A stretch of DNA of 63,825 nt, filler included, from Folioceros fuciformis (taxonomy: Eukaryota), in assembly GCA_049999805.1 (NCBI GenBank). It is 6 parts of 6 records of this genome, joined end to end, with 100 filler letters (N's around TTAATTAATTAA, not from the genome) between each part and the next. Parts side by side here need not be neighbours in the genome. Positions count along the whole stretch, not along the records: positions 28,713 to 49,581 come from JBNGIO010005388.1; 5 more parts are not named here. The stretch is one strand, 5' to 3'. Shown one piece after another: positions 19,422 through 43,748 of this stretch. The notes under the pieces are model-generated. The model saw nothing but the letters and a program-made list of their open reading frames with translations, made no database searches and was not told the DNA's origin. Both the position numbers and the translations under genes were made by a program. How positions within the stretch are numbered: position 1 is the stretch's first letter; each line of letters begins with the position of its first letter.

Positions 19422-20816
19422 NNNNNNNNNNNNNNNNNNNNNNNNNNNNNNNNNNNNNNNNNNNNTTAATTAATTAANNNNNNNNNNNNNNNNNNNNNNN
19501 NNNNNNNNNNNNNNNNNNNNNACCAATGGTGGATCACCAACGGTGAATCCATGGTCTGGAAGACTGCGGAATGGTAAACCGAAGACCACTGACCCGGATA
19601 TGTCAGTGAGGGGGAGAGTAGAAAGCAGCAAAACTGGAAATGAGGGATATGAATCCTCAAGTAGTGAGAGCATTGACAGTGAGTTTGGCATTCCGTCTGT
19701 AGAAACGCCATGTGCTAAGGAGCAACAATATGCAAGGCAAGTTCAAAATGAACTAAGACCAAGGAGATCTGAGAGGGTTAGGAAACCCATTGACAGGTAC
19801 ACCTATACAAGCTACAATGCGCAACATTATGCGTATATGACAAGGGTCACAGCTTGTAAGGAGCCAACCAAGTTTGCTGAGGCAATGACAGATGATAAGT
19901 GGTGTCAAGCCATGGATGAAGAATACTCATCATTAGTTGAGAACGGAACGTGGGATTTGGTTCAATAGCCTGATGGCAAAGTTCCTATTGGTTCTAAGTG
20001 GGTGTACAAGCTAAAGTTCAAGTCAGATGGAACTCTGGAGCGTTACAAGGCCAGGTTGGTTGCAAAGGGATATGCACAACAGTATGGTCTTGATTATGAG
20101 GAAACCTTTAGTCTAGTAGCCAAGATGACAACTGTAAGGACAGTCATAGCATTAGCAGTAGATAAAGGATGGAAGTTATGGCAAATGGATGTCAAGAATG
20201 CCTTCTTGAATGGTGAGTTGCAGGAGGAAGTGTACGTGGAACAGCCTGAAGGCTATGTTCATCCTAAGTTTCCAACATACGTCTACAAACTAAAGAAGGC
20301 ATTGTATGGACTCAAACAGGCACCTAGAGCATGGAATGCTCGTATCACAAGCTATTTGAAGGAGCGAGCGTTTGTGATTGGAGACGCAGATCACAGTATG
20401 AGCTGAGATTATGAACAATACCAAAGAAGCAAGAGCAGAAAGGCAATAGCAATCATTATGTGTAAGAAGACCTACAAATATGTCAAGGGGCATAAGTGGT
20501 TATAACTGCTAGTCTATCCCTAACTACCTAAGATGTAACCCTAAGTACATACTAACAATGTATATAATAAGTAATTATTATTTTTCCTAACACTCCCACT
20601 CATTGTGTACGTATGTCTTAGCGATACGCCCACCGAACCTGTCCAGAATAGAATAGCCCAAAATCGTCCACTCAAGTGTACCAGCAGAACGGGTTCTCTG
20701 CACGCGTACAGCAGTGATAGTCCTGTGTGACATGAAATTCACAGCGCCCAGCCGCAATTCGCATCCCTAATCTCGGCATCGGCTGGACAGAGTTGGAGCA
20801 TCCACAGCTGGTGAAG

Positions 20817-21839
20817 ATGGCGAACGATGGCGCGTCCAGGACTTCTACTCGTCAACAAGACACCACAGTCTTCAAAGAGGAGATCACAGAGAAACGCCAA
20901 CTGCCACACACCGCTACGTCGACTCCAGCACCACCTCGAAACACAGTCCAGGGGTTTGCATCAGCTGCAGAGGAGAGACTGCCCGCTCGAGTGGTAGAGT
21001 TCCTTGCACCACGTCCAGTTCAGCCAAAAGCTCCAGAGTGCATCTGTGAGGCCAAAGCTCTCTTGTGCCCTCGACACGGCAAAATTCCAAAATGGCTGCG
21101 ACAGTCAGGCTTCGAAGGCAACTCAGCGCTGCTGGTGGCCAGTCTGCAGAATTCCANNNNNNNNNNNNNNNNNNNNNNNNNNNNNNNNNNNNNNNNNNNN
21201 NNNNNNNNNNNNNNNNNNNNNNNNNNNNNNNNNNNNNNNNNNNNNNNNNNNNNNNNCCCACTTTTGCTCACAAGCGCTTCTCACCGCATGGTCCTTTGAA
21301 TGCAGTGAAAGCTCCACCATAGGAGGAGGACGAATACATCATGCTGCCTACGCCTCACAACCCAAGACCCTTCACACTGCCTAGAGGAAACCGGACCAGG
21401 ACTGTGAGGTTGATAACAGACGGCAACGGGATCAATGACCCTCTCACTCCTGAGACATACACCTGTACTGTGACTGGAATTACAATGATCAGAGAGGACT
21501 GGTTCAAGTGGGGTGGAGAGCACGGAAACTTCATATCATTTTACAGTAAGTCACTCACTCACCTCTGAATTGGTTTGCACACTATTGCTGTGCCTTGAGC
21601 ATAAGCTGTGAACTTACAACCTAACTACAGTGTCTGAACAAAGAATGCATGAGGAGGCTGGAGTGGAATATCCTATGGAAGACGAGGACACAGATGAAGA
21701 ACCAACAGACCACAATTTTGACTCCAACTTTCAGGAACTCCTTAGAAGGAATCAAAATGAGGACAGACCTAATCTGTTCTTTGGTGAGCCAGATAACAGT
21801 GGCTCAAACTCCGATGACAATTCTGTGTCTGATTTCTAA
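20817..21839 (+). CDS. Antisense accessory gene inside the 3' region of copia Y; predicted intron 21546-21630; N-gap 21157-21256; one in-frame TAG at 21320
   Basis: GTAAGT donor and CTAAC..TACAG acceptor join ORF 21341 in frame to acidic ORF 21630-21839; homologous to ORF 33431-34000. Confidence 0.7.
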
Positions 21840-21914
21840 GTTATGAAATGCCAACATCTGTGTGTGACTCTGTGACACTTGCTGCAGTCAGGTGCTGCAG
21901 AGCACTCTATCTTA

Positions 21915-24900
21915 CAAGGAAAGAGGAGTTAAGGACTCCTATGGCTTCTTTGAATTGCACATGTTTCCCCTTAGGTAGAGCTTTCGTTAAAACATCTGCA
22001 GCATTCGAATCTGTAGGGATATATTCGAGATGCACCTGTCCAAAAGATACTGCTTCACGAATGAAATGATGGTGCATTTCAATATGTTTGTCCTCGCATG
22101 GAAGACTGGATTTTCAACCAAAGCCAAGGCACCTGTGCTATCACAGTGAATTGTAGTAGGCTGCACCTGCTCTTGACCCAAATTTTTTAGTAGCCTCCGG
22201 AGCCATATGGCTTCCTTCGCTGCTTGTGTAAGAGCATAATACTCTGATTCAGTCGAGGACAACGAAACTGTGGTTTGCTTTTTCGAAGACCAGGTTATGG
22301 CATCGCCTGCCAGAAGAAAAACATAAGCCGACACTGACTTCCTGGAGTCAGAATTTGCTGCCCAGTCAGCATCATAGTACCCTATCAAAGTAAGTGGCTC
22401 TCCTTCATGATGTTGCTTTGTATAATGAATGCCGTGACTACTTGTACCCTTCAGGTACCGTAGGATCCTTTTAACGGCAGACCAATGTGTTCTGCCAGGT
22501 TGCTTAAGGAACTGTGAAGTAGTACTAACTGGCAACGCTATGTCTGGTCTCGTGTTATTGGAGCAGAAAATCAGCGAGCCAACGGCCTGTGCATAAGGTA
22601 CGTCCTGCATTTCCTGTTTTTCTGAATCAGTCACTGGTGAATGCTCCAGTGTGAGTTTACTAGCTGCTTCCATAGGAGTTGCAGCAGGTTTAGCCTCCGT
22701 GAGCTTATACTTATGTAGCATATCAAAGATGTATTTTTCTTGATGGATAACCAGCGTGCCACTGGACTTATCTCGCGGGAGTTGAGTACCCAAACAGTAA
22801 GAGAGTTCCCCAACATCCACCATATCAAATCTGCCAGATAAGAGACCTTTAACTCGGTTGATACCTTCAAGATCAGTACCAAGTAGAATACAGTCGTCTA
22901 CGTACAAAGCTAACACCACATAGCCTGTCTCCTGTTGCAGGAAGTACACATTAGAATCTGCATCACTCTTCTTGAAGCCGAGGTCACGTAGAAACTCATC
23001 AATGCACTGGTACCAAGCCCTTGGTGACTGTTTTAGACCGTAGATAGTTTTCAATAGTCTGCAGACCCAGTCCTCACGTCCCTTAGCTTCATAACCTTCT
23101 GGCTGCTGCATATAGATCTCTTCTTCCAGCTTACCATGCAAAAACGCAGTCGTCACATCCATTTGATGGATGAACAAGCTGAAAAATGCAGACATAGCAA
23201 ACAGGGCACGCAGGGACTGTGCCTTAACAACGGGGGAGAAAGTGTCATTATAGTCGAGCCCTGGGACTTGAGAGAAACCCCTAGCCACAAGGCGAGCTTT
23301 GTACCTCGCTATAGTTCCGTCAGCCTTATACTTGAGTTTAAACACCCATTTGCTGCTGACAATCTTCCTCCCCTTAGGCGGGGGACAAAGCTCCCAAGTC
23401 TGATTGTGGATAAGAGAGTCATACTCGGAGGTAATAGCTGCAATCCAATGACGAGAGTCGGGACCTGTGACTGCGTCTTGGTAGGATTGAGGTTCATAGC
23501 CAGGTTGGACAGTGACATGGACAAATTCTCCCACTATCTCATTCGGGTTCACTCCCACTGCCCGAGGCACTCTCCTAGTACGCCAGTCCTCAGCCTCATA
23601 GGGTTGTTCAAGCCACTGGTCTCGTCCACGATGCACCCTTGCAGACCTTCTAGGCTGAGGAGGCATCACATACTCTACAGGGTCATCAACAACAAGTTCA
23701 GAATCATCAGCTGGAGGGAATTCAGGCACACCATCGAAGGGATCATCTTCTTCAGCTGAATCTGAAGCAGCAGCAGGTGATGCAGGAGGATCCAGTGGAG
23801 GAACAGGGAGAGAATCTGGTGGGAGAGCAGGAGGAGGGTCTGGTGGGAGAGCACCTAAATCTGGAGGATCTGTGACATCAGAAGCATCAAAAACAGGAAA
23901 GTCTACAATATCTGTAGGCTTTGACTCATCTGACTCAGTGTAAATAGGATGTTTAGGAGTGGGATAAGTATCTGCATCTGACAAATCAACAGGGAGATCA
24001 GCAGGAGGTGTAAGGACAGAGCGCTCATCAAACGCCACAGTGCGAGCATGAGACACTTTACGAGAAACTGGATCAAACAGTTTATAACCATGAACTCCAG
24101 GTGTGTAGCCGATAAACACATGTCTTTTTGACTTGAAAGAAAATTTCTTCCAAAGCTTGTCTGGTATATGTGCATAGGCTATACTACCAAAGACACGAAG
24201 GTGGGAAATATCAGGCTTTACTCCTGTCCACGCTTCAAAAGGAGTTACATGTGATAAGGAAGAAACAGCTGTTCTGTTCTGCAAGTAAGTAGCAACTTGA
24301 ACAGCCTCTGCCCAGAAACATATAGGTAGCCTCCCCTGAAAAAGTAGAGCCCTGGCAGCATCCTGTATTGTTCGATGTCTACGTTCTGCTCTTCCATTCA
24401 TATCAGAATGATAAGGAATAGTTAGCTGCCTTGTGATGCCACGTTCCTGACAGAAATCTTGAAAAGCTGAGGATAAGTATTCCTTCGCATTATCAGATCT
24501 TAAACTCTTCAGCTTACGCCCTGTCTGACGTTCAGCATATGCCAGGTATCTTTTAAAACTGTCAAACACATCCCTTCTATGCTTCAGCGACTCAGTGACT
24601 GTAAAGTGAGTTTTATCATCTTCAAAGACAACAAAATACTTGGCACCTCCCCAACTTGGTGTGGACATAGGGCCACAAATGTCCGAATGAACCAAGTCTA
24701 ACACTTCTGTCTGTCTCCGTGGTTTGCCAGATCCAAAGTGAGATTTAAACTGTTTCCCATGAACACATGCAACACACAACTCCAAATCTGGTAAGTTAGA
24801 ATCTGTAAAACCTGTAACCATCTTGTCCTTCAACAAACGTCTCATGGCTTTAACGTTTGGATGTCCAAGCCTGCAGTGCCATCTGAAGGCAGCGTATGAT

Positions 24901-26297
24901 TTACTAGATGCAGACTCCACTACATGGGCTGATGATGGTTGGACATCTGAGACAAAATCTAGGATATACAAGTCATACAGGGGAGTACCACGAGCTATGA
25001 CATCTGAAGGTGAATTCAGCCTAGTGATAACGCACTCTAAACCTTCAAACAAAATGCTGTACATACCTGTTTTTCCTAAGGCCATAGTACTAACAAGATT
25101 TTTCTTGAGTGCAGGGACATGGAGTACATTCTCTAACTCCCATGTCTTCCCGTTCTTCAGAGTAACTATCACTGTACCTATACCTCTAATAGGTATATGA
25201 GAATTATCTCCTAGAACAACAGCATGTTGACAAGGTAACTATCTATAACTTACAAATGACTTCTTAGAAGAGCACATATGATTAGATGCACCACTGTCTA
25301 AGAACCAATGATTTTTGTCCTTTGACACTGAGGACAGACAAGCCACAAGCAAACCAGGTGTTGTAGCTCTTGCCACATTTGATTCATGCTGCTTTCCTTT
25401 TCCAGCATCATCTCTTTGCTTAGCCCTGCAATCTCTAACCCAGTGACCTGGCTTGTGGCAGTAATTGCACACACCAGGCTTCTTCCCGGGCTGCTGTGAG
25501 CTGGAGCTGGAATCAGGTCGGGACGCTTGTCCCCTGCCCCTTCCAAATCCTCCACGCCCACGCCCCCTTCCTCTGCCGCGACCTCTGCCGCGGCCAGACC
25601 AAAGTGCAGTATCACTTTGCTTATGGGATGAGCTCGACGAACCCTTGCCAGTCATATGCTTCCTGTTGGCTTCTGCTTGAAGCAGGGCTCCAACTAGCTT
25701 TTGTACAGTCAAGGATGTCGTTGCTGGGGTTGTTGCAGTTGCTGGAGTAACAGTTGCTGTTGCTTGAATACTTGTGCTCCAAGTTTCATAGCTTGGAGGA
25801 AGGGCCAACAAGAACTGTACAGCTGCTCTACTCTCATCAATGATGACTCCGCATGCTGCAAGTCGTGCTGTTGCTGCCCTGAACTTTGCAACAAAGCTTT
25901 CAACTGACTCATTTTCTTTCATGCGCAAATTTTGCCAGTGGTTGGTGGCGGCTCCCACTGAAATCAAATCCTTTGCTTCATGTGCATGCTTGGCCATCTT
26001 GATATGAGGAATCATTTCTTGTGAAACTGAACCAACAAGAATTGTCTTTGCTTTTCTATCCTTATGACTCCATTCTAACGCATCCTTCGGCGTCCACAGT
26101 ACAGGGTTCGTCCCCCCTGGTGTCATCATACCAGAGGGCTGCCCAGCCACCCTTTTTGGAATGGTGCCGTCAGTGACTTCCATCAGAAGTCTTTCTTCAA
26201 GAATTGTACGAACCCTAAATGACCAAGCATCAAAATTGTGTGGAGTAAGGCGATCCTTCTCCTGTAGGCAATCAGAGGTCTGGTCTGCTGTCGCCAT
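21915..26297 (-). pseudogene. gag-pol: gag-pol of element Y, nearly intact (stop at 25239, frameshift near 22085)
   Basis: CNYCHKPGHWVRDC; WFLDSGASNHMC; WHCRLGH; RSDNAKEY; LYVDDCIL; DADWAANSDSRKS. Confidence 0.95.
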
Positions 26298-28712
26298 TTT
26301 ACTCAGCTTCCTTATGAAGGGAAGGACCTCAGATCAGCAAGCTGCTGTCTGAGATTAGTAATATCTGATGCATGGTTCTTCACTTCCAATTCCAGACCTA
26401 CTGCTGAAACTGACTCAGATTCCCGCTGTTTCTCCTGACGATCTAAACGAGATGTTAGAAGGTCCACACGTCTGGAAGTCCCCAAGACAGCGGACTTAAC
26501 ATTCAGCAGTGAATTAAGAAGTACATCAAATTGCTTTAAATCAAAGTGCTTCGAATTATCTTGTACAGGAAAAGGAAGTTGACAACATCTACAAGTAGCA
26601 AGTAACTGGGGTAATCGGCAAGATGAATCTGATGCAAACTGCCTGCCTGGAACTGCAGATTGATGCGCTCCCACTTGACTGGAATTATAGGTTTCAAGAA
26701 ACGTCTACGGAAACCGTACTCGCTCCTCTTGCTGTGCTTGTGAAAGCACGTTCTTGAAATAAAGGTTCTCAAATTGAACTCCGAAATCTTGTATTTCTGA
26801 TGTTGGCGTCGCAAGACATCGACCCTGCCTACTTGCTGATGTCCAATGATTCCTGCAAACGCCTTTCCTCGGCATCGTGCCGGTTTCGCATTAGCGAATG
26901 CCTATTCTGCTCTTTTCTCTAATGAGAATTATCCATAATCCAAGAAACACCATTATCAAGTCCTCCCCACATTAAATCTAAGAGGAAGTAAAGAGCAGAA
27001 AGGCATGGATCAGCATGGCTCTGATACCAAGCTGAGATTATAAACAATACCAAAGAAGCAAGAGCAGAAAGGCTACTAGCAATCATTATGTGTAAGAAGA
27101 CCTACAAATATGTCAAGGGGCATAAGTAGTTATAACTGCTAGTCTATCCCTAACTACCTAAGATGTAACCCTAAGTACATACTAACAATGTATATAATAA
27201 GTAATTATTGTTTTTCCTAACAGTCTGTTCGTAAAACAGACCAAGGTAGGACAAGTGTGTCTTGTCGTTTATGTTGACGACCTGATCATCACAGGAGATG
27301 ATGCAGATGGTATTGCAGATGTCAAGGCGAATCTGCAAAAAGAGTTCAAGGTGAAGGATCTTAGTGAACTCAGATACTTCTTAGGAATTGAGGTTGTGTC
27401 TACACCTCAAGGAATCTGGCTATTCCAAAAACAATATGCTAAGGATATGTTGCAGAAGTATGGCATGGCAGATTGCAAAGCGATGGATACACCATTGGAG
27501 CAGAACGTCAAGCTGCAAATGGATGTAGGAGCTGAGCTGGAAAATGTGACTATGTATCGACAGATGGTCGGAAGTTTGATCTACTTGACTATCACACGTC
27601 CTGACTTAAGTTATGCAGTGGGACTGATAAATCAATTCATGCAGAACCCAAGGAAACCGCACTTGGATGCAGTTAGAAGAATCATGAGATATGTGAAAGG
27701 AACTACTGAGTTTGGATTGCTCTATGAGCATAGGAAGCATCTTGAACTGACAGGATATACAGATGCTGATTGGGCTGGTTGTGTGTATGACAGAAGATCA
27801 ACCAGTGGATATGCATTCAGTCTGGGAAGTAGTATGATCAGCTGGCAAAGCAAGAAACCACCGACAGTTGCTTTGTCAAGCACAAAAGCAGAGTATCGAG
27901 GAGCTGCAATGGCAGGCTGTGAAGCAGCTTGGTTGCAGAAGTTGCTACATGATCTTGGAAATATAGTGAACAACAAGGTTACAATCTACTGTGACAACAT
28001 GAGTAGCATGAGGTTGGCTACTAATCCTGTGTTTCATGCTCGTTCGAAGCACATAGAAGTACATTATCATTTCATCAGGGAAGCGGTATTATCTGAGAAG
28101 ATAAATCTTCGGCACGTGAAGACCGAAGACCAGGTAGCAGATATCTTTACTAAGTCGCTAGGTAGAGATAAGTTCTTACACTTTCGTGAACTACTTGGAG
28201 TGTTACAAATAGTCTGAGCTTGAGGGGGAGTGTTAGAAATCAAGCTCTAACTGAATTGTTATTAAGAGCATACAACACTTAGGATAGTGTAGATTATCCC
28301 ATATTGAACTCGTAGTTATCTATCACCTAAGTGTTATCAGGATATATCAGGATATACTAGGATATTGCACCCTCGAGACTAAGGCTTACCTTATCGAGGG
28401 TTGCCTCGCCTGAAGGCTATATATGTAGCATCCTGTGCACCATAAGTAAGGAACTGTGGAGTCCTTCCAGGCTTGTGGTGCTATTTCAACAAGTAGACCA
28501 CCCTGCCCCCCTAGAGTCCGAGGTCATTATGGTTGCTGGCATCCCCCCAGAGGCAGCCACACCCCACCCCTCCCCCTCTTGAGCTCTGCTCCCATAGTTT
28601 GAGGCCGCGCCCNNNNNNNNNNNNNNNNNNNNNNNNNNNNNNNNNNNNNNNNNNNNTTAATTAATTAANNNNNNNNNNNNNNNNNNNNNNNNNNNNNNNN
28701 NNNNNNNNNNNN

Positions 28713-29113
28713 TGCCGGGTAGGAGGAGTCAGTAGGGAAGTGTAGAAGGTAGTGGTGTCGTTGCTGGTAGTTGCTGGTGTTGGTGTTGGAGTGAGAGAGT
28801 GAGTGAAGTGTGTGAGGGAAGTCGCAGATCTGAGAGGTTAGAGTCATTGTAGTGACTGGAGTGAGTTTGTGGGCACCGAGAGAGGTGCAGCTGACCGCTG
28901 GACAGCGAGGCCTATCCTACGCCTGATTGGAGCTGGAGGGGAGCCCTCGAATCCATCATCGAGTCGATCAAGTCCGACCCTCCATCCAAAGTAGCAAGGA
29001 ACCCCATCGCTCCTTCGTGGGAACGAAACCCAATGTCTCAACGACAGTGGGATAAGTGTGGCCACTAAAGGTGGAACCCGTTGGCAATCAGTGCCCGGGG
29101 TTTTGCCTGCATA
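28713..29113 (-). mobile_element. 5' part of LTR family B (terminus mutated to TATGCAGG), inserted in element C
   Basis: Near-identical to 49341-49581 and 95-308. Confidence 0.85.
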
Positions 29114-31369
29114 AGCGGGATCGGGATGGCGAAGGAGGAGCGGGGGCCTAGGGGCTAGATCAGCCCGTGGCGAGGGGAGATGGCAGCGGGATTGGGGAAA
29201 ATGGGCAGGAGAGCAAGGCAAATCTAGCAACGGGGCTGTAGATTGGGGAGGAAATCGAGACAGGGCAGGAGGGGAATGGGGCAAGAAATCAGCGGGAAGG
29301 AGAAGGCAGGCTTGGCCCTGCATCGGGCGAATCCTGCAGCTCGTCTCAGCCTCCTCTTCTGCACACATTCGATCCCATCACCTGTCGATCCCTCCTCCTG
29401 CCTGCAATCTGGATCCAAAGAAGAAGAGGTGCAAAAGATGGGAAGGGAGATGAGAGGGAAGGGGAAGAAGAAGAAGAGGGGGGGCAAGAAGGGAATGGAG
29501 GAGTGGGGAGTGAAACTTGCACCCAAGAACCACCAAGGGGCCACACTTCCCCTTATTATCGTTGCAGTCTTATGATTCGCTCCCAAGGGAGTGAACTAAT
29601 TTCAAGGTTACCTACATCTCCCTAATCTCACCCTATCTATCAGCATATACCAAGTGCTACAGCAATAGGTCAGAAGTCTCGGTCCTGTCTTCGGCTCCTA
29701 CCACAACACCAACCCCAGCCTCAACAAAATGAAAACTCCAGCATTGTCTTCAGCCTTCATTTCCAGCTCCAAGTATCAATCACTTCAGTGCTAAGAGGAG
29801 GCTCCAGCCCCAAGTCTGGCCTCCAACTCTCAGCACCTAGTGCTAGCTACCTCCGCAGCTGAACGAGAACCTCAACTTCAGCTAGCTCCTCACTCCAGCT
29901 CCAACACTTCATTCCACCACTTCAGCACTTCACTTGAGCACTTCAGCACTTCACTTGAGCACTTCAGTTCTTCACTTCAGCACTTCAGTCCTTCACTTCA
30001 GCACTTCACTTCACCCTCCAGCCCCTCACTTCAGCTCAACTCCTCACTTCAACACTTCCACTTCCAAAATCTACAACTCAACCCTTCTCTCCTGCAATTT
30101 GGAACACAATAGCCTTCCCTCTTGCAGCCTTCAAGGCAAAGGCGAGGCCTAGGGCTGGGTAGCCTCCTTTGCTCACGGCCCTGCAACCTCACCTCAGCCA
30201 GCATGCAAGATGGTCAGCCATTGCGGATTCGGCCACACGAATCTTGGCAGTCTTGGGATCCCCCACGTTCCCCTAGTGGCAAGGGAAATCAAGACCTTGG
30301 TTTAGTCTCAACCAGCTCAGCGCCCTAAGCCAGGAGTTCTGCACCCAAGGTCCAGGGAAATCGCACCGTAGACAGCCCCCTCCTCAATGGCAGGTCTAGC
30401 CTTTTATACTACCTTGGCCCAAACCTCCATCTCCATCTATTAGGGTTAGCCTCAGTCAACTACCCAGCAATCTCTCTCTGACCTAAGCCGGCCCTAATTC
30501 TGACCTAAACCTAACTCTGACCTAACCCTAACTTTGACCCAAACCTAGTTCTGACCTGAAAGGGGTTGTGTCCCATGGACACCACTGGGTGCCCTTACCA
30601 AAATTGACCAACCTCTCAAGACTACCAAACTGGTCAGTGCCTCTCAACCCTCTCCCTTCTCTCTCAAATCATTCCATCCCTTCTCTTAGATCATTCCAGC
30701 AACCCTTCAAAGACACATCTCACCTCACCATTAATCTAGCTACTAATCTTTCCTAATCTTTTAACTTTTTCACCACAGGGTTCACTTAACGATTCCCAAA
30801 AAGAGAAATCCTACCATTTTCTAAGGACCTATTCAGGATGTGGAGTCCACAAGGAGGAAGGGAGAAAGGGGGAAAAGGGATGGGGACGGCCGTAACCCCT
30901 GCCTCTAGCTCTAGCTAGGGCATGGCCTCCATGGCCGTTCATGCCAGCCAAGCAATCAGCTAGCCTATCTTCAGACCCTGACCCCTGACACTGACATACC
31001 CAGATACCCGTTCCTATGTTCAAACCATTATTTTATTATTTTATTATTATTATATTTAATTATTTAATATTATATATCTTTAATTAATATTAAACTAATC
31101 ACCAGACCTAGACTCAAACTTTCCCAACCCTATGGCCTGGTACCAAACCTAAACCTTCCCAGGTCTGGGACCAAACCTATACCCACTCTTATAACCAAAC
31201 CAACTATTTCCTAGTCAATTAACCTAATTAGCACAAAGAAAAATAGGAAAAATGACCAGAAAATCAAGGAAAATTAGGAAAAATAAGTAGAAAAAGAAAA
31301 CCAAACCATACCACTATTAACCCTTTTTCAACCAAAACAAACTACTACCCCAAACTTTGGAGGTTCACA
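29114..31369 (-). mobile_element. LTR-like element 'C' (starts TGTGAACCTCCAAAGTTTGGGG), inserted into a copia RT and hosting A and B insertions
   Basis: Copia RT resumes exactly at 31370; start resembles TGTGAGCTCTCAATCTTTGGGG at 6557. Confidence 0.6.
29504..30851 (+). mobile_element. Solo LTR, family A (1348 bp), TSD AGGAG
   Basis: TG...TCCACA termini; AGGAG at 29499-29503 and 30852-30856. Confidence 0.88.
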
Positions 31370-33428
31370 GTTTAGTACATAACAATGTACTTATACCTGC
31401 TCAGCATTAACTTTGTCAAGAATGCAACCGACAATAATGTGTACAAGCTCACACAAGGAGCATCCATCGTCATCTTGGCGCTTTACGTGGATGATGTAAT
31501 ATTTGCCACAAACGACCAAGGTCTATTAGCATCTATAAAAGACAAACTCAGCAGTAGATTCGACATGAAAGACATAGGGGAGCTTAAATTCTACTTAGGA
31601 ATCCAACTCCTCCGTGTAAGGGCAAAAGGCCTATTATTCATTCACCAGTACAAGTATATCGACGAAATTCTTATGAAGTTTAACCTAGATGAAGCTAGGC
31701 TAGCTACTACACCCTACGCTAAAGGGACAAAGCTGACTAAATACCTGTGGCCTCAGTCGCAAGCAGAAAAACTGGACATGCAAGATATACTTTATAGGCA
31801 TGCTATTGGGTCTTTGATATTTGTCGCCAATTGGACACGACCTGACATACTGTACGCTGTGAGTACAGTTTTGCAGTTTTTAGAGAACCTTGCCAGGGTG
31901 CACTGGGTTGCTTTTAAGAGAATATTCCACTATTCAAAGGTACACACAAATACGGGCTTATGTACAAGAGCACAAGGCAGAAGCAACTTATCTTGAGGGG
32001 CTTTACAAACGCCGATTGGGCTTCAAACTCCGATGCGCGAAGGAGCCTCTCCACATATTGCTACTTGCTTGGCACAACAGCCGTTACTTGGAGCGGCAAA
32101 AAGCAGGCATTTGGTGCCCTTAGCTCATCCGAGGCTGAATACAAGTCCCTAACTGAGGCAGCAAAAGAGACTGAATGGGAACGCAGTTTCCTCAAGGACT
32201 TGGGCCAGCCGTAAGAGAAGCCCACTCTTGTACTCTGCGATAACACTACAGCCCTAGAATTAGCTGAAAGTTCCAAGTTTCATGCCCGCACTAACCATAT
32301 TAAAGTGCAGCATCATTACATCCGAGATGTGGTCCACAGAGGTGTTCTCAAATTGGAATATGTACAGACAGACGAAAACATGGCTGACATCCTTACGAAA
32401 GGATTGCCTAAATACAAACACTACTACCACATGGAAGGCATGGATTAAGGGACTATTCTGCCTATTTTGAGTGATAGTTGCTAATCTGGGTGGTGGGGGG
32501 GTGGAAGCCTATGCTTCCTAACATGAAAGTTTAATCTGCACCTCCCAGATGACTTGTGCTGCATGAGCAACGACCCGATTAGCCTTCTGCAGCCAATGCA
32601 TAATTGAATGACACAGGATCAAATGGATGAAGCGTAAGGGACATCCTAATCATCTGTATGCCTATCTCGACAACCCTACTCCTACCCATACTTCTCTTTC
32701 AGTTGCCCAGGAGCTCTGTAGCTTTCTACAGTTGATTGAAGAGCCCTTGCTTCCCTTCCTCTCCCATAGAGTGTGACGGCAGGGTGACTGTCTCCCTCTC
32801 ACAAACTCTGCTCCAAGCTAAGGTAACATTGAGTGCTACATGGTAACCACTTGCGCAAATATACTGGTCGGCGTCGTACCGCCCCTCCCATTCCAGCTCC
32901 AGCTCCTTCCAGCTCCTATCGCCATCCATCTGGGATGCTGGCTGGGTGACGGTGCTGAGTTGGGAGTCCTCTGAACGAGTGTGCTTGCGACGACCTATGC
33001 GCCTGTGAGAGCTATAATCTGTCCCATTCCTCTTGCTCATGATCAGTCGAAGCAGGAAACACCCTAGACGCGTGAGTATGGAGAGCAGAAGTTGCAGCTG
33101 GGCGGTGATCACAGCAAGGTGGACCACCATGGATCTTAAGCTAACAGCTTTAATGCGGAGCGGGAGATGGATTGCTGGCTCAACCACTGCATTATGTTGG
33201 AGCGTGCGTAAACGAGAGACTATTCCTCGTGAAGGCCAGCCCGCCTGGTTCTTGTGGGGCATATGTTTATCATAATTTGCATTTAATTAACCGTGGTTAG
33301 TTTAGGAGGGAGTGTTAGAGTAAGTAGGGGTAAACCTAACGCAGGTTAATTAAGTTAGGGCTATTTAGTCAAGAGTCACGTACATCAGTATTTAAACATT
33401 TTTGTATTACGATTACGATCATTCCAAC
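31370..33428 (+). mobile_element. 3' part of copia 'W': RT/RNase H (31370-~32448), ~850-bp 3' region with antisense ORF 32726-33262, PPT 33304-33312, short LTR from 33313
   Basis: LYVDDVIF; ADWASNSDARRS; ENMADILTKGL; AGGAGGGAG|TGTTAG. LTR 3' end approximate. Confidence 0.85.
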
Positions 33429-33430
33429 TA

Positions 33431-34000
33431 TCAGAGTTTCTCTACGCTCTCGCCTTCGCTCATTTTACACAAGGTGCATATAGAGTCTTCAGGTGTGAGA
33501 GGGTCGTTAGCTTCATTCCCGTGAGAGATCAAGCGTCTTCTCTTCTTCAAGTCACCTATTGGGAGTGCGAGCTTTCTAGGGATGAAGTCGGCAGAAACCA
33601 TAACCTTGTTGCTCTCCATCTCGTCAGCGCTCGTCATCACCTTCAGTCTTCCCTCCATGTCGTCTGGGTAGGAGAGCTTCTTCTTGGTCGCCCTCAACTT
33701 CTGCTTCAGAAGTCTGATTTCATGAGCTAGTTTGGCCTTTTCCTCCTCCAGACCTATTGTGACTTCCCTCCAGTGCTGTGTCATTTGATAGAACTCCTCT
33801 CCTTCCACGGCACGCCATTTTTGTTTTGTGTCAGGATGGACATGACAGCAAGGAGGAAAGGAAGCTCTGCAATTGCACAGGTCGATGACGGTTGAAGCCC
33901 TCGTCATATAGCTTGATGCTGTGTCGCCTCCTTCCTTGGCACTAAGAAGATCATCAGTATCAGATAAAGTGATCAGGGCAGCGGCTGTTCTCCCAGCCAT
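33431..34000 (-). CDS. Antisense accessory ORF of copia 'V' (Cys/His motif, coiled coil, NDPLTPE block), C-terminus probably cut by element W
   Basis: Open ~190 codons from ATG 34000; lies just upstream of a PPT/LTR on the opposite strand; homologous to 20817-21839. Confidence 0.7.
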   Translation of the reverse strand: MAGRTAAALITLSDTDDLLSAKEGGDTASSYMTRASTVIDLCNCRASFPPCCHVHPDTKQKWRAVEGEEFYQMTQHWREVTIGLEEEKAKLAHEIRLLKQKLRATKKKLSYPDDMEGRLKVMTSADEMESNKVMVSADFIPRKLALPIGDLKKRRRLISHGNEANDPLTPEDSICTLCKMSEGESVEKL

Positions 34001-34193
34001 GTTAGTTGCGACGATGCTGAGGCTATAGACATGAGAGCTAGTGAAATGGACGCATGAAGTTTTCAACTATGAAGATGTAAGCAGCTCAGTTGAAGACTTC
34101 TGCTGCGGGAGTACTTTCAATTCGTCGGTTTTATGGGCGAACATGTGGTAGTTGATAATATTTAATGTCATTTGTGCTAGTAGGTATACCCAA

Positions 34194-34392
34194 TGAGTGG
34201 AAGTGTTAAGAATACCATTAGTTAGGTATTCGGTTAATTGGGTTACCTATTCATACTTTAGTTTATTATTTTAGGTTTAATAAGCAGTTATAACTACCAC
34301 CCAAGACTCATGCTATATGTAATCGCGTTTAGGTATTGTGTTGTAACGTTTTCATGTTTTTGCTGCTGCCCTCTACAAATTTGAGCCTAGCA
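34194..34392 (+). repeat. PPT (34194-34203) and probable short 3' LTR (34204-34392, TGTTAAG...CTAGCA) of copia 'V'
   Basis: TGAGTGGAAG resembles the Y PPT TGAGTGGGAG; AT-rich ~190-bp TG..CA block of similar size to the Y and Z LTRs. Confidence 0.65.
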
Positions 34393-36129
34393 ATCACATC
34401 CGTCACACCTATTGACTCCCCCACTTGGCAAGAGTCATTAGATTAACCCCAAAGAAGAGCATGCTGCCACCCATGATCTATCAGACACCATGCAAGCATG
34501 GTCGGCACTCACTCCAGTACTGCGAGGAAACAAGAATGACAAATCATGGGGCACGACATGGAGAGCACGATCAAGAATTAAAGGGACCCAGCCCTTAACC
34601 CTAGCCACTACTTCTCAAAGCTTTATCGGTCGTTGCACAACATGCATAGCCGGCACACACTGCTGCATCCAAGCAAGGACAGCCCGAGATAGATGGTTAA
34701 GTGACAAGCGGGTTCTAAAGGCTCACAACCTCTTCTAGAAGACTTCTAGCTCTAGTCCCCTTCCTCTCTCTACAGGTTGACCACTAGGACACGATAACCA
34801 AAACAATAGTTTATAGCACACTATTATTCTAGACTAGTTCATCAACTAGTCATCAACTTGACAAGCTGCCAGCCCCCTTGCTAGCCCTACCAACAGCTCT
34901 TGTTGATCCTTGGCTGTCGAATACTCTTCTAAGATTTGGTGGGCGCCGCCTTCTTATTATTGATTGGCTGTCTGCAAATGCTTCTCCTGCCACTGTTTCC
35001 ATGGCGGTTGAGGTCGCCTCAGGGCCAATCACCTTCACTCCTGTAGCATCTCCCCTAACGGTTCTTGAGTAGCGGGGCCTGCCCTTACATGCCAAACAAT
35101 CAAGCATCCTTCCAGCCTAAATTCCATTGCCAGGAGTCACGAAGGCCGATTGTCCTGCACCACTGATCATATGTTGGGTGCACTCCTCCTGTTTGTGCCA
35201 ATTTGGCAGCGGACTACAAGATCCCATCCTGCACATAATTGCTTGCACATACGTGTTGAGGATTTGTTGCCTCCCCTCTCCAAATGATCAGCCACAAAGA
35301 TGTGATTTAGGATTGATCGGATCATCATGGCTTTCCGACCACTCAGTGTAATTTAGTGATCTTCTACAAAGATTCGAGGAAGCCGCACGTTTGAGAGACC
35401 TAAGCCAATCATGGCGTCCTAAAGAAGAAGCCCTTTGTGTGGAATTGGGCTAGGAATTATGTTGAGCTTGAGAGAGAGAAGCAGACCTACTCCACCTAAC
35501 TTATTTGCTATGTAGTTGTGAGCTCAATCTCACTCTTGAGTGTTCTAATGTGGTTTAGGGTTTAGGGTTTAGGGTAATAATTATTCATCTTATTTATAAT
35601 TCATCTTAAATACCAGTTTTTCAAATCCCTTCAAATCCCATTAATAAAAGGATAGGAAAGATGACAAGGAAAATAAATAAAAATAGTGTGTTTATTAAAT
35701 AATTTTCTTCCCTTTTCTATCAATACTATATGAGAATAATAGAGCAGTAATTTATTTAATGAAATTAACCTTTAATTTCATGGTGCAAAAAAACTTTGCT
35801 ATATTCCCATAATAGTAAAGACGAGTTACATACCATGACAACGATCTAGGATATGCTTTAGATGATTTGACATAGGGTCCATGGTAAGATCCTTGTAGCT
35901 CGGATACCAAGTTAGAAAATTACATCCGGAAGCATATTTTGTATACATGTTAGTAATAACAAAAGCCACTTAAGATAATACAAAAGGTTGACTTTTATAG
36001 ACAATGACCCAAGAGGTGGGACCTTTCACTAGCCTTGTTAACTAACTGAAATGATCTCCTAACCCTAGCTACCTAACTTGGCTAGTACAGAACCAACATG
36101 GTTTGTTAATACATTCTAATTAATTAGAA

Positions 36130-36600
36130 TTTGAGAGGGAAATGAGTATAAGATGGCATTTCGTACTTGACATGGGCACTTTGAGTTCGCAATGATGCCC
36201 TTTGACCTCGCGTACGCACCACCCACCTTCCAATGTATGATGTGGGAGATTATTTGACCCCTCTTGGGTCACAAGATGAAGGTTTTCTTTGATGATAAAT
36301 TGATTTAATTTGCAAAGACAAAATGGCATTTTAAGCTCATGAGAAGAAGTTCAAGGCATTGCACCAACAAAAATTATTGGCAAAATAGAGTAAGTGTGTA
36401 TTTATGAAAGAAAAGTGTGAGTACTTAGAACACTTATCAACCTTGCAGGGATCAAGGTGGACATTTGGAAAATCAAAGCCATCAAGGAGTGGGAACTATT
36501 GCAAGATGTAACTCAGGTGAGTGGCTTCCTCAACATGATAGGCTTTTACAAATCCTTTATAAAGGACTTTAGCCGTATCACTATTCCTCTCACCAACACC
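36130..36600 (+). pseudogene. Ty3/gypsy reverse transcriptase remnant
   Basis: AFRT*HGHFEFAMMPFDLAYAPPTFQ...VFFDD...KCVF...EYL. Confidence 0.85.
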
Positions 36601-37204
36601 CTAAGCCAACTTGCGAGCAAGTAGCTTTAGTTCGAACCTAAAGCAAATCAACGAGCTTAAGGTCGACCCTAAAGCAAATCAAGCGTTCCTAAGCCCGAAG
36701 CAAGGAGTCAACACAGCCTCAGCATTGGCAGTGACAAACCCTAATCAACAATCATCAAAATTGGGCATTTGTGTGATTGAAGGCATGGGTCAGCTTTTCC
36801 CCTCATTACTTGCATTAACAAACACCTCCAAAGTATATAGGTCACCATATTTTTTTTATCTTTTTCTAATCTCAAGCCTTAAGAATTTAGGAGCTATTGG
36901 AAATCCTCTTCAATTATCTTTTCCTTAGAAAGCGGCTTTGTGTATAGTAACCTCTTTTTAAAATTATGGTGTTTTGGATGAAATGATGAGGTTCGCTAGA
37001 TGAATGGACGAGATACTTAATTTGAATTGACCACGTCCTCGACCAAATCCTCTATTGAAATTGACCATGTCCTCGATCAAGGCCTCTATTTGAATTGACC
37101 AGGTCCCCAACAAAGTCCAAAGTCCTCTCTTTGAATTTAGCTGTCTTCTCTTGAAGTGGTGAACCAGTTGAAATAAACTGTTAAGGTCCGTTGCATGAAT
37201 TAAC

Positions 37205-37365: not shown

Positions 37366-37852
37366 CCGCGAATTGACTACGTTGAAGGAGGAGTTAATCC
37401 AGCAATGAGAATACTGTTTTCACTGCGGGAATATCAAGATCCACATCATCATTCAAACAACGAATTGGATTAACCCAGGACATAATTAAAACAATGAAAG
37501 TAAATTCCAGTAATTTATCTCCAAGTATTCTTTTTGTCCAGGGGTGCTCTTCGTTTTGCGGTTAACCGGGGAGGGCGACCCTCCGCAGTGTAGTGAAGGC
37601 CAAACCCTTCACCACAACCCCGAATGGTCCGCAATATAACAAAAATATGATGCTCCTTGCTCGTTCCACGAGTCAGAACACTCCCAAAACATTCAAACTC
37701 AGAGAGTCATGCACATCATTAAGACCTAACAGATTTATTTCATTGCACTAGAATAAAGGCAGAAGAAAATACCACTAGAATACATCTTCACAAATTCCTG
37801 CCGCATTTTGCAGCAGCCACAACGCTGGAACCTGGGTGAAGCAAAGCCATTA

Positions 37853-40800
37853 TTACCGTCGGCGTTCTTGCTGAATAGACAAGAGAATCCCAGCAGCTGA
37901 TTCAGGTGTCGCTACCACTGCTCGAGGGGCTACTTTAACCACACCTCCTTGGAGCTCACCAGAAACCAGACATGGCCGATCTTGATATTTGTCCACGACC
38001 GGGACAACAGGAAACAAAGGAAGTGGATTTCTCATACTAGCACTGCTCTGCAAGGCCTCAACATCTGCATCCTCATCCCTGGCACGCAAGTCCGTTTCTT
38101 TGGAGACGCATAGATCTCTCGGCCTCTTTTGAGACCGCTCATGATTCTGTTGTCCAGATATGCCATGCAAACCAGAAGCTGCATCTGTAGAGGCCTCTGC
38201 CTCAAAACTATCCATTTCTGATTGACATCTGTTCCAGCCTCCCTCTCTGTGTACCCTACTCGGTTCAGGCTTATCTCCTGCACTCAAGTTCTGTTGCAAG
38301 GATCTGTGGGCAGTACTTGGTCCCTGCGAGTTTACCCTGTCCACATCTGTCGTCGAGTTCCCCTTGGGCGTAGAGCCCATGGATGGTATTTGATACGTCC
38401 CACACAGCTCGAAATTGGGCCGTGGAACCAACGGTCTCCCCATTGCAGACGATGGAAACATATCTGCATACTCCAACGACTTGGTTACAGAGCATTTTGC
38501 ATGGTGACTTTGCACAGGCCCTTGAGACATACTGTACCATAAAGACATTGGATCACCTGCAGGTGCAGGTGCTGATGAGCCATAACATTGAGGATGTCTC
38601 GAGGCCCAAGAATAATACCTTGAGCAAGACTCCGAAAACAACTCAGACCATTTCTCATAGCCAGACAGGCCAAATGACATCATGGACAGATGACCTGGTA
38701 CACTGACCAGTGGGCGATATGGCCCATATGCACCAACAAGAGGACCTGCAGAGGGGGCAAAGGAAGGAGGATAATGGCACATATATGTTCCTGTCCTGGC
38801 AGACATGGCTCCCAGCCATGGATTTACGGGATATGGGGGGTAACCCCAAGCATTCGGTACCTGGGGATACAAAGCGGATACCTGTGAGACAGATGCTTGA
38901 CCAATCCGACCCTGGGTTTCTGTGCTCGTAGATGTAGGACCTTCCTTACAGGAAGATCCCTTTGCAGTCACAGCCTCTGTTTGCATAACACTGCTTGGGG
39001 CTGCCTTTCTACTTCCACGCGATTTATGATGCATTCCGGCATCATGAATTTTTGTTTTCTCACAAGCTTTCTCTATCAAGTTTGCAGCCACAAAATCACT
39101 ACATCCTTCAGATACAGTGTAGTCCACACTTGGAGACATGGCCATAAGCTGCTGAACCTGTTCACAATCAGCACGTCCACTACTGAGCCATTTGCAGGGC
39201 TGAAAGACTCTCGGGCAATAACAAGGAATAGCAAAGATATAGATTGCCAGGGTGAGAACCTTAACCAACCGGTGAAGCTCAAAAACCTGGACAGAAAAGA
39301 TTCTTTGCTGCCTGTGAACAGAGAGAGAAGCAGGGTATCACATACAATAAGCACAAGATTCAACAGAATCTACAAACGAGATCATCTAGGCTCTGACTCA
39401 ATGTGTCTTGCCTCCATGTCTTAGCTCAAGCTGGCAATCGAAGAGTGAAGCTAATCATAGCTCCACAGATTGCCAGGGCTAGAGAATCTAATACTTGTGG
39501 TACAAACGAACAAGATAAAACGCGAGATTCAAACCATGAAAACAAAATTTACCTTAAGATAGCTTTCCGGGTTCTCCAGAACTCTTGTTGACCAATGGCT
39601 CCAATGACATGTCTCGGAGAGATCCTGTGAATGGTTATCGAGTCGACCATGGAGGAGTCTGAATCATCGCCTGTGCAACCAGCAACATATGAAGGTTCGG
39701 GAGCTTGTAGCCCATTACCAGCTCCCTGGTGTTCAGAATCTCCACTGCTTTCAATACTGTCAGTTTTGTATCCTTGTGGATGATGGTGCTTTTCAAGATT
39801 AGGAGAAACCTTGCGGATGGACGAGATATTGTTGAAATGATTGTCCTCTGTATCAGTGACACCATCCTTCGGCAAAACAAGGCCGCTAGACATACCACAA
39901 TCATGATCTTGACCCCTGTCTCTAAACCCATGGGGAACTATGGGGCCATGCATTGCACATTCGTCATGCATAGCACATCCTACTGCAGTCTGTGCAGAAG
40001 CTTTAACGGACTTGTTCCTCGGGTCTTGAAATGAGCCTGGTTCCAGAAAATTGCCAGCAGATACAAGAGGTTCATCAGGCCAACTGTCTCGCCGAGGGGA
40101 CAGCACGTTCCCAAACAAATCAGGCACCACCGTTTTGCACAAGCCTGAGTTACAGGCAGTAGAACCTTTCAATTCAGATATTGCCTTACTTCGCCTTGCT
40201 GCTCGAGTACCAGTCTTCCCACTGCAGCTTCCAGTAGCGTCTAATAGATCCTGACACACCAGTCCAGTTGCATCCTCAACTTGTCCGTCTCCAGCACTTT
40301 GCCCAGTCATGCCACTTGCAGCATTCAAGGACCCTTCGTGCATACTCTTCACACCAGTATCCGGAAAAAGAGATGACCCTACTTTGTTCTTGTGGGGCAC
40401 GGAATATATTGGCACAGTGAAATCGTCTTCATTTCTATGCTTCTTAGCGCATGCCAACTTCGGCTGATCAATAGAGTGAGCACCTGATACAACATTCAAA
40501 GGCCCAGGTCCCGGGCTAGGTGCAGAACTATCCACCTGCGAAACACCAGGAACTCTTTGTAACTCTCCATCACCGTCAACAATGGTACTAGTACTGCTCC
40601 CAAGAGATGCGTGGCCTCCCAACTGTCGTCCCATGCTGGTACCGGTATATGCCAAAGGGGGCGGGACACAGTTCTGAGGATACATGTACCTCCTGTCATA
40701 GACCGAGTACTGCACATGTGGAGTCCACGGTTACAAAGACAACAACAGTGATCAATAACAACTGCATGTCGTGACTGCTCATTTGGCTAGCGCACAAAGA

Positions 40801-41215
40801 TAAAGGTCCTCAAACTCGTCACATTAGTATGGCAGAAATATCAGACCCTACAATCCAACAACATTTTCAGGTCGAGACCTTGCTCGTTAACACGCTGGGA
40901 AAGTTGTGCTGCCTACAACCGCTCAAGCTACAATAATAACACAACAAATGATCTATGAAAAATGGGCAGGTTAATGACCTGAGGAACAAGCGGCACGGAG
41001 CCCGCCTTCCGTGCGGAACTGGGAAGAGGGAGGGACGACGACATGAACCTGTGTGAAGGTATCGTGAACTGCTCATACAAAGCCATCTTATTCCGTGGAG
41101 GGGCACGAGGCCCCACCTTGTTGGTCTCCTTCACGTGCAAACGAGGAAATAAAACTCCAGCCTCAAGCCCCCCGCCCTTCAAGCCATCCCCCGACCCGTC
41201 ATCCGCCCCTTTCAT
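37853..41215 (-). CDS. ELF3: EARLY FLOWERING 3-like clock protein; exons 41215-40979, 40709-39553, 39311-39260, 39157-37853 (~916 aa; in-frame upstream ATG at 41296)
   Basis: Block [28 protein letters not shown]; block [50 protein letters not shown]-terminal [26 protein letters not shown] junctions in phase, 52-nt exon 3. Confidence 0.96.
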
Positions 41216-41496
41216 CCCACCAGCGGAAAGGGATTTGCTCAACACTTCATCATACATGTTGCTGTGGTCCTTTCTCTGCCAACCACCTTCCCACATCCAC
41301 AGGGCCCAACGGGAGTGCTCAACGACACTTCCATGGACCTACAAGCTCAAACACCCCCAGGCAACGCCGACGGGTTGCACATTTGCAAAAATTTCGTGTC
41401 TCGGAATGTTTGTAAATCTCCCGCGGTCGACCTACAAGCTCAGACACTCGACGCTCAAACACCGTACCGTGCAGTGCCACCGCGTCCCCCAATTGC

Positions 41497-42324: not shown

Positions 42325-42794
42325 GAGCAATGGGAACTAGGGATCTTTTAGTTCCTCTGGGACATCAATTCCTCTGTGACGGTGCGGGAATTTGCTAAGA
42401 CCATGTTGCTGTGTGCCCGTGGGAAGGCGCCCTCCGCCAAAGTCCAAGATAACCCCACCCTTTGGATAGTGCAAATGATGCGCGAAGTATATTAGAGACT
42501 AGTTGAGGAGCTCGGTGGTCTCTACCTTAACTTGTAGCGCAACAAGGACTTGGTCAAGGAGGCGGTGGCGGCGTTCTTGCAGGAAGACTCCATGAAAACC
42601 ACCAATGGGTGGTTGATTCATGACATCTTGGACCCACGGATTAGGGGAGTGGCCAGGATTATCTTCAACTAGCTTCTTGTGACCAAGACGAGCCACGTTG
42701 CGGATGGGGTCCTTCTCCTTTATGGGCTAACGCAAGGTACCCCATTTGATTGGGGAAAGGTGGTCGCACATCGGATACAGTCCAATGTTAGGAA
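42325..42794 (+). pseudogene. Decayed retrotransposon-associated accessory ORF, continuing at 49213-49340 after element Z
   Basis: Frame reads ...LTQGTPFDWGKVVAHRIQSNVR|KLKQEKPPTSELSPFLFHIW across TSD AGGAA. Confidence 0.55.
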
Positions 42795-43256
42795 TGCTAC
42801 TAATTGCGGAAGCGAAAACATTGTAATAATAAATAAAAGGAAAAATATCCTTAAATACAAAAATTGTATGTGTGTCTTTTGGGTTAACTGAGTAACCTCT
42901 GGTTAGACTAAGTCATAAGTTATGTTAGGGTTTTATATCCAACACTCCCACTAAACCTTACATGGATTAAGTAACTACAGGTTTGAATACAACATCATTA
43001 CAAGCCATTACTCTCAGCTACCCTGCTCAGCCAAGTACTCACGCATGGAACCCCTGATTCTTAGTCCTCTTAAACCTCGCATGCAGCTTGCTAAGGGAAG
43101 CAGTCGCAAAACAACTGATTGTGGATCTGCTTAGACTCGACAATCAGCAAGCCACCAGCCATATCTTCCAGGCACGCCGGCAAGAGGAGCGCAAGCAATA
43201 GTGTTGGTGGAGATCAGGAGCGTGGGCGTTCCACAGCCAGAAAGGGAGTTCCAGCT

Positions 43257-43748
43257 ATGGCGCCGACACCGCCGCCCAACACGCCAGCACCTGTCAGCCT
43301 GCCTCGCCATCTTGCAGACATCCCAACGATGGAGCTGGATTCCGACGACTCCTCCAGAGCCTCGAACCCAGTCATCACAAACCTCTCTCCTGTGCCCAAC
43401 TCAACTGACAAAGACGAAGAGGTAGAGAGCATCCCTCGCCGCAGAGGCTGTGCTCTCGGAGGACTTCCCACTGCTTCTATGTTAGTTGATCAGGTGGACG
43501 CAGTGTTTGCCATGCTTGACGAGATGGAGAAACTCCTGGACACTAAGAGAGCTAAGGTGGCTAGGCAGCAAGCGGAGCTGACACAAGAAAATGTGGAAAG
43601 AGCTGTTGTTGTTGTTGACAGGACGTTCGCCGAAGTGGAAGGGAACAGAGCCAGGCGTCGTGACAGCAGAGACTGTGGTGTGTGTGCCTTCAGTAGAAAG
43701 TTGTGCCATCTATGTGGAAAGAGACAGCGTGTGACGAGTAGAAACTAG
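43257..43748 (+). CDS. Antisense accessory ORF in 3' region of copia Z (Pro/Ser-rich, coiled coil, CxxC-x6-CxxC tail)
   Basis: ORF 43119-43748, first ATG 43257; lies between RNase H and PPT. Confidence 0.5.
   Translation: MAPTPPPNTPAPVSLPRHLADIPTMELDSDDSSRASNPVITNLSPVPNSTDKDEEVESIPRRRGCALGGLPTASMLVDQVDAVFAMLDEMEKLLDTKRAKVARQQAELTQENVERAVVVVDRTFAEVEGNRARRRDSRDCGVCAFSRKLCHLCGKRQRVTSRN

Follow-up and report, generated by a model that had tools for sequence, protein, structure and literature searches.

A putative orphan antisense gene marks a clade of Ty1/copia retrotransposons in Folioceros fuciformis

Open reading frames (ORFs) that run antisense and sit between pol and the 3' LTR form a described class, named aORF-3R or eORF-3'R in the available text of three sources (PMC7264820, PMC11963269, PMC6317226), with examples including gene23 of maize Grande, rice RIRE2, the TRP28 ORFs of Retand, the PMD ORFs of Ogre, ORF2 of PvRetro13 and Botrytis Boty. 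Grande GENE23 is a nuclear protein expressed from an antisense promoter of its own (PMC7264820). In the accessible lineage tables of the REXdb survey, an eORF-3'R is recorded for 86% of Retand, 60% of Ogre and other gypsy lineages, and among copia elements only for SIRE (1%) (PMC6317226); the placing of the two figures in the Bianca and Ikeros rows is uncertain, single copia cases may exist, and the survey used a cut-off of 250 codons, above most of the ORFs considered here. Beyond the sense env-like ORFs of SIRE, plant copia elements are regarded as carrying gag-pol alone, and a literature search with subscription journals outside its scope returned no report of antisense 3' ORFs in plant copia elements.

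The ORF family described here resembles the aORF-3R class in place, orientation, presence in most copies of its lineage, conservation at the protein level and helical content, and would belong to it in that most family copies carry an antisense ORF between pol and the PPT. It differs in that the host element is Ty1/copia, and from Retand in that the region between pol and LTR measures ~1.1-1.7 kb, compared with 2.9-6.6 kb in the available description of that lineage. SIRE, itself a copia lineage, likewise has an additional ORF in the interval from RNase H to the PPT; however, in the portion of the survey available, those ORFs are in sense orientation (eORF-3'F in 74%, PMC6317226) in elements of ~10 kb, whereas the family here is antisense in elements of ~6.2-6.8 kb with LTRs near 200 bp. 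Two further systems offer more distant parallels. VANC21 of VANDAL21, a coiled-coil anti-silencing factor according to the accessible parts of two reports (PMC8616336, PMC13547354), is also a transposon-encoded coiled-coil accessory protein acting on its own family, but comes from a DNA transposon, and no sequence similarity to it was found. HTLV-1 HBZ and HTLV-2 APH-2, which the available text presents as small nuclear regulators expressed antisense from the 3' LTR (PMC11963269, PMC7264820), are alike in layout only, being retroviral bZIP proteins to which no similarity was found.

A truncated antisense ORF in a nest of retrotransposons

The window analysed is a stretch of 63,825 nucleotides, filler included, joined from six parts of six records of assembly GCA_049999805.1; positions 28713-49581 are contig C5388 (JBNGIO010005388.1). 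The features at the locus and in the related element Y are as follows, where L-numbers denote loci of the same genome.

31376-32446, plus strand: broken RT/RNase H of element A
33304-33312, plus strand: PPT of element A
33313-33471, plus strand: 3' LTR of the nested copia element A (LTR-A), cutting the ORF; L035 92%, L050 73%
33431-33472, minus strand: foreign ORF tail made of LTR-A DNA (chimeric codon 177, residues 178-189 and stop)
33473-34000, minus strand: residues 1-176, the genuine part of element B's antisense accessory ORF; identity with the full copy L002/L032 73%
34192-34203, plus strand: PPT of element B, the same tract standing before TG in 41 of 58 loci
34204-34407, plus strand: 3' LTR of element B (LTR-B), 204 bp, TG...CA; L034 has this LTR followed by a PBS
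34286-34295, no strand assigned: palindromic TATA-like box in LTR-B, a candidate promoter in both directions
20817-21568, plus strand: homologous antisense ORF of element Y, with a frameshift and a stop and with an assembly gap inside

A first-pass annotation had described an uninterrupted minus-strand ORF of ~190 codons beside a PPT and LTR. The frame is indeed stop-free from the ATG at 34000 to the TGA at 33431 (189 aa) and contains the Cys/His motif, heptad stretch and NDPLTPE block named there; however, its last residues and its stop derive from LTR-A. A DNA search with 33250-34450 recovered three repeat families, covering the bases up to 33471 (A), 33472-34407 (B) and from 34408 onwards (a third repeat), and relatives of B matched only from 33472 while those of A stopped matching at 33471, indicating that element A inserted into the ORF of element B. 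The closest full copy, L032 (206 aa), has 30 further residues that include the best-conserved block of the family, and the insertion at 33471/33472 removed these ~30 conserved residues. The window copy is a dead, truncated remnant cut by a nested insertion.

The PPT and the TG...CA LTR proposed on the plus strand were recovered as such, but the LTR ends at 34407 rather than 34392, as defined by three relatives and by the 5' copy in L034, which is followed by a tRNA-Met-type PBS. The ORF was confirmed as a second copy of that of element Y (tblastn E=7e-8 within the window) in the same geometry, the ATG lying 204 nt from the LTR in B and 225 nt in Y. The remark that the two LTRs do not obviously align has to be corrected: they are homologous by global alignment (score -35, against -107 +/- 15 for shuffles), with none of 300 shuffles scoring as high and 128 identities in 219 columns. 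The PPTs of B and Y differ at one base, and the two LTRs are distant relatives.

The gag-pol of the window element B is absent from contig C5388. The pol of element A was considered as that of B and rejected, the RT/RNase H tree placing 31376-32446 with A. Among the loci examined, no B-subfamily element with both LTRs was recovered; the B relatives L031, L032 and L033 have copia pol upstream of the ORF on the other strand (INT-RT-RH in L032). Neither outcome that the first-pass annotation named as refuting its reading was obtained, 34204-34407 being an LTR and relatives with copia pol carrying the ORF. Element Y spans 20401-27222 on the minus strand; its domains run gag - protease - integrase - RT - RNase H, as in copia, with PF14223, PF22936, PF13976, PF00665 and PF07727 following one another.

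Some neighbouring sequences were noted in passing. The repeat beyond 34408 resembles a broken element that we take to be of the gypsy family, with RT-like peptides at ~36100-36500. Bases 28713-31369 are the end of a further repeat nested in the RT of element A, giving the nest order B > A > repeat; relatives of this repeat lie at 92-2370 and 49343-49581. A short sense stretch of element Y (26312-26704, minus strand), situated after the 5' LTR and before gag, is conserved at the protein level within the clade of ORF-bearing elements (L038, L039, L040, L042, L045 and L047; 30-48% over 30-110 aa), is coiled-coil-like and may be either a 5' extra ORF or a Gag extension.

Distribution, inheritance and selection of the antisense gene

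Homologues were sought in the 87-Mb assembly with three protein searches, which gave at least 40, at least 73 and at least 62 matches, some loci being found twice; the family thus extends well beyond the two window copies. Most, but not all, of the matched places were examined as 59 rows, reduced to 58 loci after removal of a duplicate of Y. In 44 of the 58 loci an RNase H on the opposite strand stops 41-627 bp short of the ORF. Two further loci have RNase H at 928 and 1271 bp, the latter from a nested element, and a script found none in 11, five of which lie near a contig end; L033 and L084 have pol in the same antisense arrangement despite being missed by the script. The only RNase H near the window copy is that of element A. 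No sense-oriented ORF was seen in the 58 loci, and a PPT follows the ORF in 41. Both LTRs were present in ten loci (96.3-99.6% alike), nine of which have a tRNA-Met-type PBS directly behind the 5' LTR; the target duplication was an exact 5-bp repeat in three two-LTR loci and near-exact or one base off in two. These features identify the carriers as Ty1/copia LTR retrotransposons, and a PBS for whole tRNA-Met argues against the Bryco, Osser, Bianca and TAR lineages as characterised in the available part of the source.

A quick, midpoint-rooted RT/RNase H tree was calculated from 61 rows, omitting those shorter than 110 aa (e.g. L031 and L032). All 33 ORF carriers in the tree fell on one branch of 42 rows (SH-aLRT 97), with B and Y on different main branches of the clade. 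Flanking sequence sufficed in 27 of the 30 RNase H sequences closest to that of Y, and 23 of these 27 have the ORF; the four that lack it nest inside the carrier clade. For the 30 loci with both genes, ORF and RT/RNase H distances were correlated (Spearman 0.73; 0 of 2000 permutations as high), which reflects co-inheritance rather than a functional link, as kin share both genes, and the ORF was estimated to evolve ~3.2 times faster than RT/RNase H. Judged by its distribution and tree congruence, the antisense gene was inherited vertically in one Ty1/copia clade, whose ancestor gained a protein gene, antisense, between RNase H and the PPT.

Selection was assessed for the C-terminal domain in 240 of 1127 pairs, picked for a dS of 0.3-1.5 and not independent of one another, giving a median omega of 0.34 in the ORF frame; the mirror frame gave 0.46 and the remaining four 1.03, 1.11, 0.98 and 1.60. 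The Cys motif and helix gave an omega of 0.36 (12 of 179 pairs), and in matched pairs with unsaturated RT (19 of 504) the values were 0.16 for the C-terminal domain and 0.115 for RT/RNase H. Stops occurred at 0.88 per 100 codons in the ORF frame versus 2.8-6.4 in the other five (3.5 in the mirror frame), a comparison that somewhat favours the ORF frame because segments were picked by an ORF-frame profile, and 58 of 60 ORF-frame stops were TGA or TAG, the pattern expected from C-to-T decay. The window copy itself has an omega of 0.42 against L032 and 0.94 against L031, a high value being expected where changes after insertion dominate. The ORF is thus under purifying selection and is almost certainly a real selected gene. 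The long-term selection on an antisense protein that the first-pass annotation had proposed from two copies is supported by omega, stop density and tree congruence across far more copies, while the description itself needs correction, since B is truncated, Y is frameshifted, the LTRs are related and many young copies are broken.

Only 8 of 58 loci have a frame without stops between the Cys motif and the C-terminal block, many loci being cut by contig ends, and several of the eight have no ATG where it usually stands. Across 39 loci the ORF was denser in stops than pol: its stop density was 0.86 per 100 codons (48 in 5612 codons) compared with 0.46 for pol (123 in 26856). Siblings with different flanks share lesions: the Y-type frameshift occurs in four of five copies, and breaks or deletions are common to L060/L075, L045/L047 and L065/L066/L078. 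Several of these subfamilies have pol without stops and LTRs 97-99% alike, and the ORF is broken in several of the youngest elements, whose LTRs are 98-99.6% alike; the gene could thus be in decay at present. Shared lesions between different flanks indicate that these subfamilies, Y included, multiplied after the ORF broke, and the protein was therefore either supplied in trans or helpful yet unneeded; the ORF is probably dispensable in cis, to judge from these copies. In L006, L011 and L033 the codon at the usual start is ACG, and in L031 ATA; L038, L040 and L049, one subfamily with otherwise open frames, have no ATG near the usual place. Such starts may represent either decay or use of a near-cognate codon. 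Short forms of the ORF, in which the helix is joined to the second half of the C-terminal domain, were also observed (L079 ~960-1420, L065, L066 and L078), that of L079 being open over 152 codons.

The predicted product and its possible roles

The family shares a common build of about 205-275 aa: an N-terminal hydrophobic stretch followed by Ser/Asp/Glu, a linker, a Cys/His motif, a 45-residue helix, a second linker and a C-terminal domain of ~75 residues with many conserved positions that are Pro, Gly, Trp, Cys or aromatic, both linkers being variable. In the window copy these parts are located as follows.

33950-33976, minus strand: N-terminal hydrophobic-plus-acidic motif, residues 9-17, with a loose likeness to a SUMO-interacting motif (SIM); 23 of 41 loci, sense-strand control 0 of 41
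33836-33877, minus strand: Cys/His motif CxC-x(4-7)-C-xx-H, residues 42-55, a putative zinc knot; 15 of 17 covering rows
33677-33811, minus strand: long helix, probable coiled coil, residues 64-108; pLDDT 80-90 for residues 71-100 of the L032 model
33473-33607, minus strand: residues 132-176, the initial portion of the conserved orphan C-terminal domain, whose remainder is lost

The pattern for the N-terminal motif was drawn from the same sequences in which it was counted, and the Y subfamily lacks the motif. With strict patterns taken from the available text of PMC3395311, which fit few copies, SIMa matched 4 of 41 loci (control 3 of 41) and SIMb 3 of 41 (control 0), the window copy not among them; with Ser allowed for Thr, SIMb matched 11 of 41 (control 0), and a loose SIM pattern 25 (control 17). 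A KKRRR basic patch was considered as a family-wide nuclear signal and rejected, as it is confined to the B subfamily. AlphaFold2 gave a mean pLDDT of 54 for the whole of L032 and 44 for a C-terminal domain, only the helix being confident; fold searches with the first of these poor models returned generic coiled coils (Z about 5) or nothing at E≤0.001, and a homodimer-with-zinc model (score 0.02) weighs neither way. The motifs themselves are present in the sequences, and from them we infer a non-enzymatic adaptor.

Most copies have their first in-frame ATG at a distance of ~165-275 nt from the LTR. The 8-bp core of the palindromic box recurs at LTR positions 55-105 in 15 of 39 LTRs, on both main branches, and 20 of 39 have another TATA-like word immediately inside the PPT, both counts being given without a shuffle control. 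Either element could drive an antisense transcript, which would probably come from a promoter within the 3' LTR or immediately interior to it. A small unstranded RNA run from this species gave no cover at 31702-36966; as only the dead window copy was compared with RNA, nothing follows for open copies.

We tentatively favour, by analogy, an accessory protein that acts in trans in the nucleus and counters the silencing of its family by the host. The shared lesions suggest a product that acts in trans and is unneeded by the moving copy, and its most likely job would be to relax the silencing that host chromatin imposes on its family, the part that VANC plays for VANDAL. This reading is preferred on account of the adaptor-like build, the faster evolution than pol, the dispensability in cis and the precedent of GENE23 and VANC21; accessory proteins of transposable elements evolve faster than core proteins according to the accessible part of one report (PMC13547354). 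No homologue or fold linking the protein to chromatin was found in Pfam, protein-collection or ESM Atlas searches, and two other roles, each rather unlikely taken singly, fit the observations nearly as well.

In the first, the antisense protein or RNA dampens replication of its own element, in the manner of HTLV-1 HBZ, so that loss leads to a temporary burst. Ty1 copy-number control provides a parallel. The inactivating lesions shared within young multi-copy subfamilies and the four close RNase H relatives lacking the ORF would suit such a self-limiting regulator, and antisense regulators are discussed in PMC7264820; however, long purifying selection nearly as strong as that on RT is harder to maintain for a brake, and young copies with open frames also exist (L038, L040 and L049). 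The second, of comparable and equally limited probability, is a replication-cycle cofactor in trans, serving nuclear import of the integration complex, RNA export or target-site choice. Its basic patch and putative zinc knot could bind nucleic acid, it is strictly co-inherited with pol, and such a role has been proposed for plant antisense ORFs (PMC7264820), but other copia clades of the same genome have unrelated ORFs or none, and elements have moved with a broken ORF. An env-like or cell-to-cell movement protein is very unlikely: the position matches that of env-like ORFs and a coiled coil is present, yet known env-like ORFs are sense while these are antisense (PMC7264820), and alignments read by eye show no long hydrophobic stretch. 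Less probable still is the absence of any protein, with constraint acting on RNA or DNA or the frame being a shadow of a sense-strand frame; the low mirror-frame omega and the broken state of most copies point that way, but third positions are common to the ORF and the mirror frame, in which stops are fourfold denser, third positions vary most in 9 of the 10 listed pairs, and Cys, His, Trp and Gly columns are kept at protein identities near 30%.

Homologue searches and two further antisense families

The search for homologues beyond this genome was negative at each level: 0 of 118 candidates from a single-protein search, 0 of 7997 longer proteins with the C-terminal-domain profile, no match among 1.84 billion representative proteins with a 15-row profile in HMMER, and 0 of 81 stretches in a metagenome scan. 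The ESM Atlas gave no usable match (best 0.84, unnamed), and Pfam only sub-threshold coiled-coil matches. PF04195 (TRP28), PF10536 (PMD) and PF03078 (Athila ORF1) gave no match in three family proteins (E≤1), 46 segments (E≤0.1) or L069. Accessory ORFs of transposable elements are rarely annotated, so these results do not show that other plants are without the gene.

A captured piece of host Ies6 (INO80 subunit C), mimicking a chromatin-remodeller subunit, can scarcely be credited as the origin of the ORF: yeast Ies6 was the best PDB sequence match of the C-terminal-domain profile (E=0.024 over 42 positions) and plant Ies6 was returned in the same register, but HHalign probabilities were only 0.16% against the host's Ies6 and 0.26% against a 30-sequence Ies6 profile, and PF08265 matched the genome in just two places, both host genes. 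An Ies6/YL1_C (PF08265) identity was rejected since both HHalign and the PF08265 profile failed. The host Ies6 gene, at L136:1153-1656, is intron-free, and its product has its nearest relatives (69-77%) among proteins of moss, liverwort, fern and lycophyte.

Two other antisense ORFs were found in further copia elements of the window. That of element A (32726-33040, minus strand; also in L035 and L117-L135) gave 22 matches and lies behind RNase H in 16 of 19 loci examined; it encodes ~105-130 aa with an M-(R/K)-T-R-S-G-like start, a basic patch in several copies and a Trp-rich core, and its N-terminus recalls, to our eye, the nucleosome-binding motif of KSHV LANA and IL-33. Elements of this type form a clade of their own (SH-aLRT 99). 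That of element Z (element 42794-49207, minus strand; ORF 43257-43748, plus strand) gave 36 matches, lies behind RNase H in 14 of 15 loci (L138-L152) and combines an acidic hydrophobic motif, a helix and a C-terminal four-Cys cluster. For A and Z in turn, uncorrected pN/pS reached 0.58 and 0.47 when read in the ORF frame and 0.65 and 0.54 in the mirror frame, the four others giving 0.9-1.3, and stops occurred at 0.4-0.5 per 100 codons in the ORF frame versus 1.8-7.3. Sequence comparison detected no homology of the B family to either ORF; the ORFs of B and Z, though unrelated, both join a hydrophobic acidic motif to a helix and a cluster of Cys.

On this sequence evidence a copia clade is marked by a real orphan antisense gene under selection, and a clade-wide antisense gene under purifying selection near that on RT means that the class is not confined to gypsy. 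The two further unrelated families suggest that the length cut-off and thin sampling outside seed plants had hidden it. A wider conjecture, which we consider doubtful, is that in non-seed plants small antisense genes for counter-defence, below the 250-codon limit of earlier surveys, are a routine part of copia elements, three copia groups here having three unrelated ones, at least two of which would have converged on a SUMO-binding motif, coiled coil and zinc module that disarms SUMO-dependent chromatin silencing in trans. If this held, VANC would have a counterpart among retrotransposons, built on a new protein domain. The function of antisense ORFs should be easier to test here owing to the short proteins, clear motifs and coexistence of open and broken subfamilies.

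Further observations concern neighbouring genes. Upstream of gag in element Z there is a 217-codon sense frame (48211-48864, minus strand), with a 38% relative at L031:9338-9898. A host gene with three introns lies under spliced RNA contigs at 37478-41479 (minus strand) and is presumably ELF3-like from its N-terminal motif, a tandem cluster of broken genes at 52144-55050 (plus strand) is taken from its motifs to be GRAS-like, and an intron-free gene at 58783-59619 (minus strand) is assumed to be of DnaJ type.
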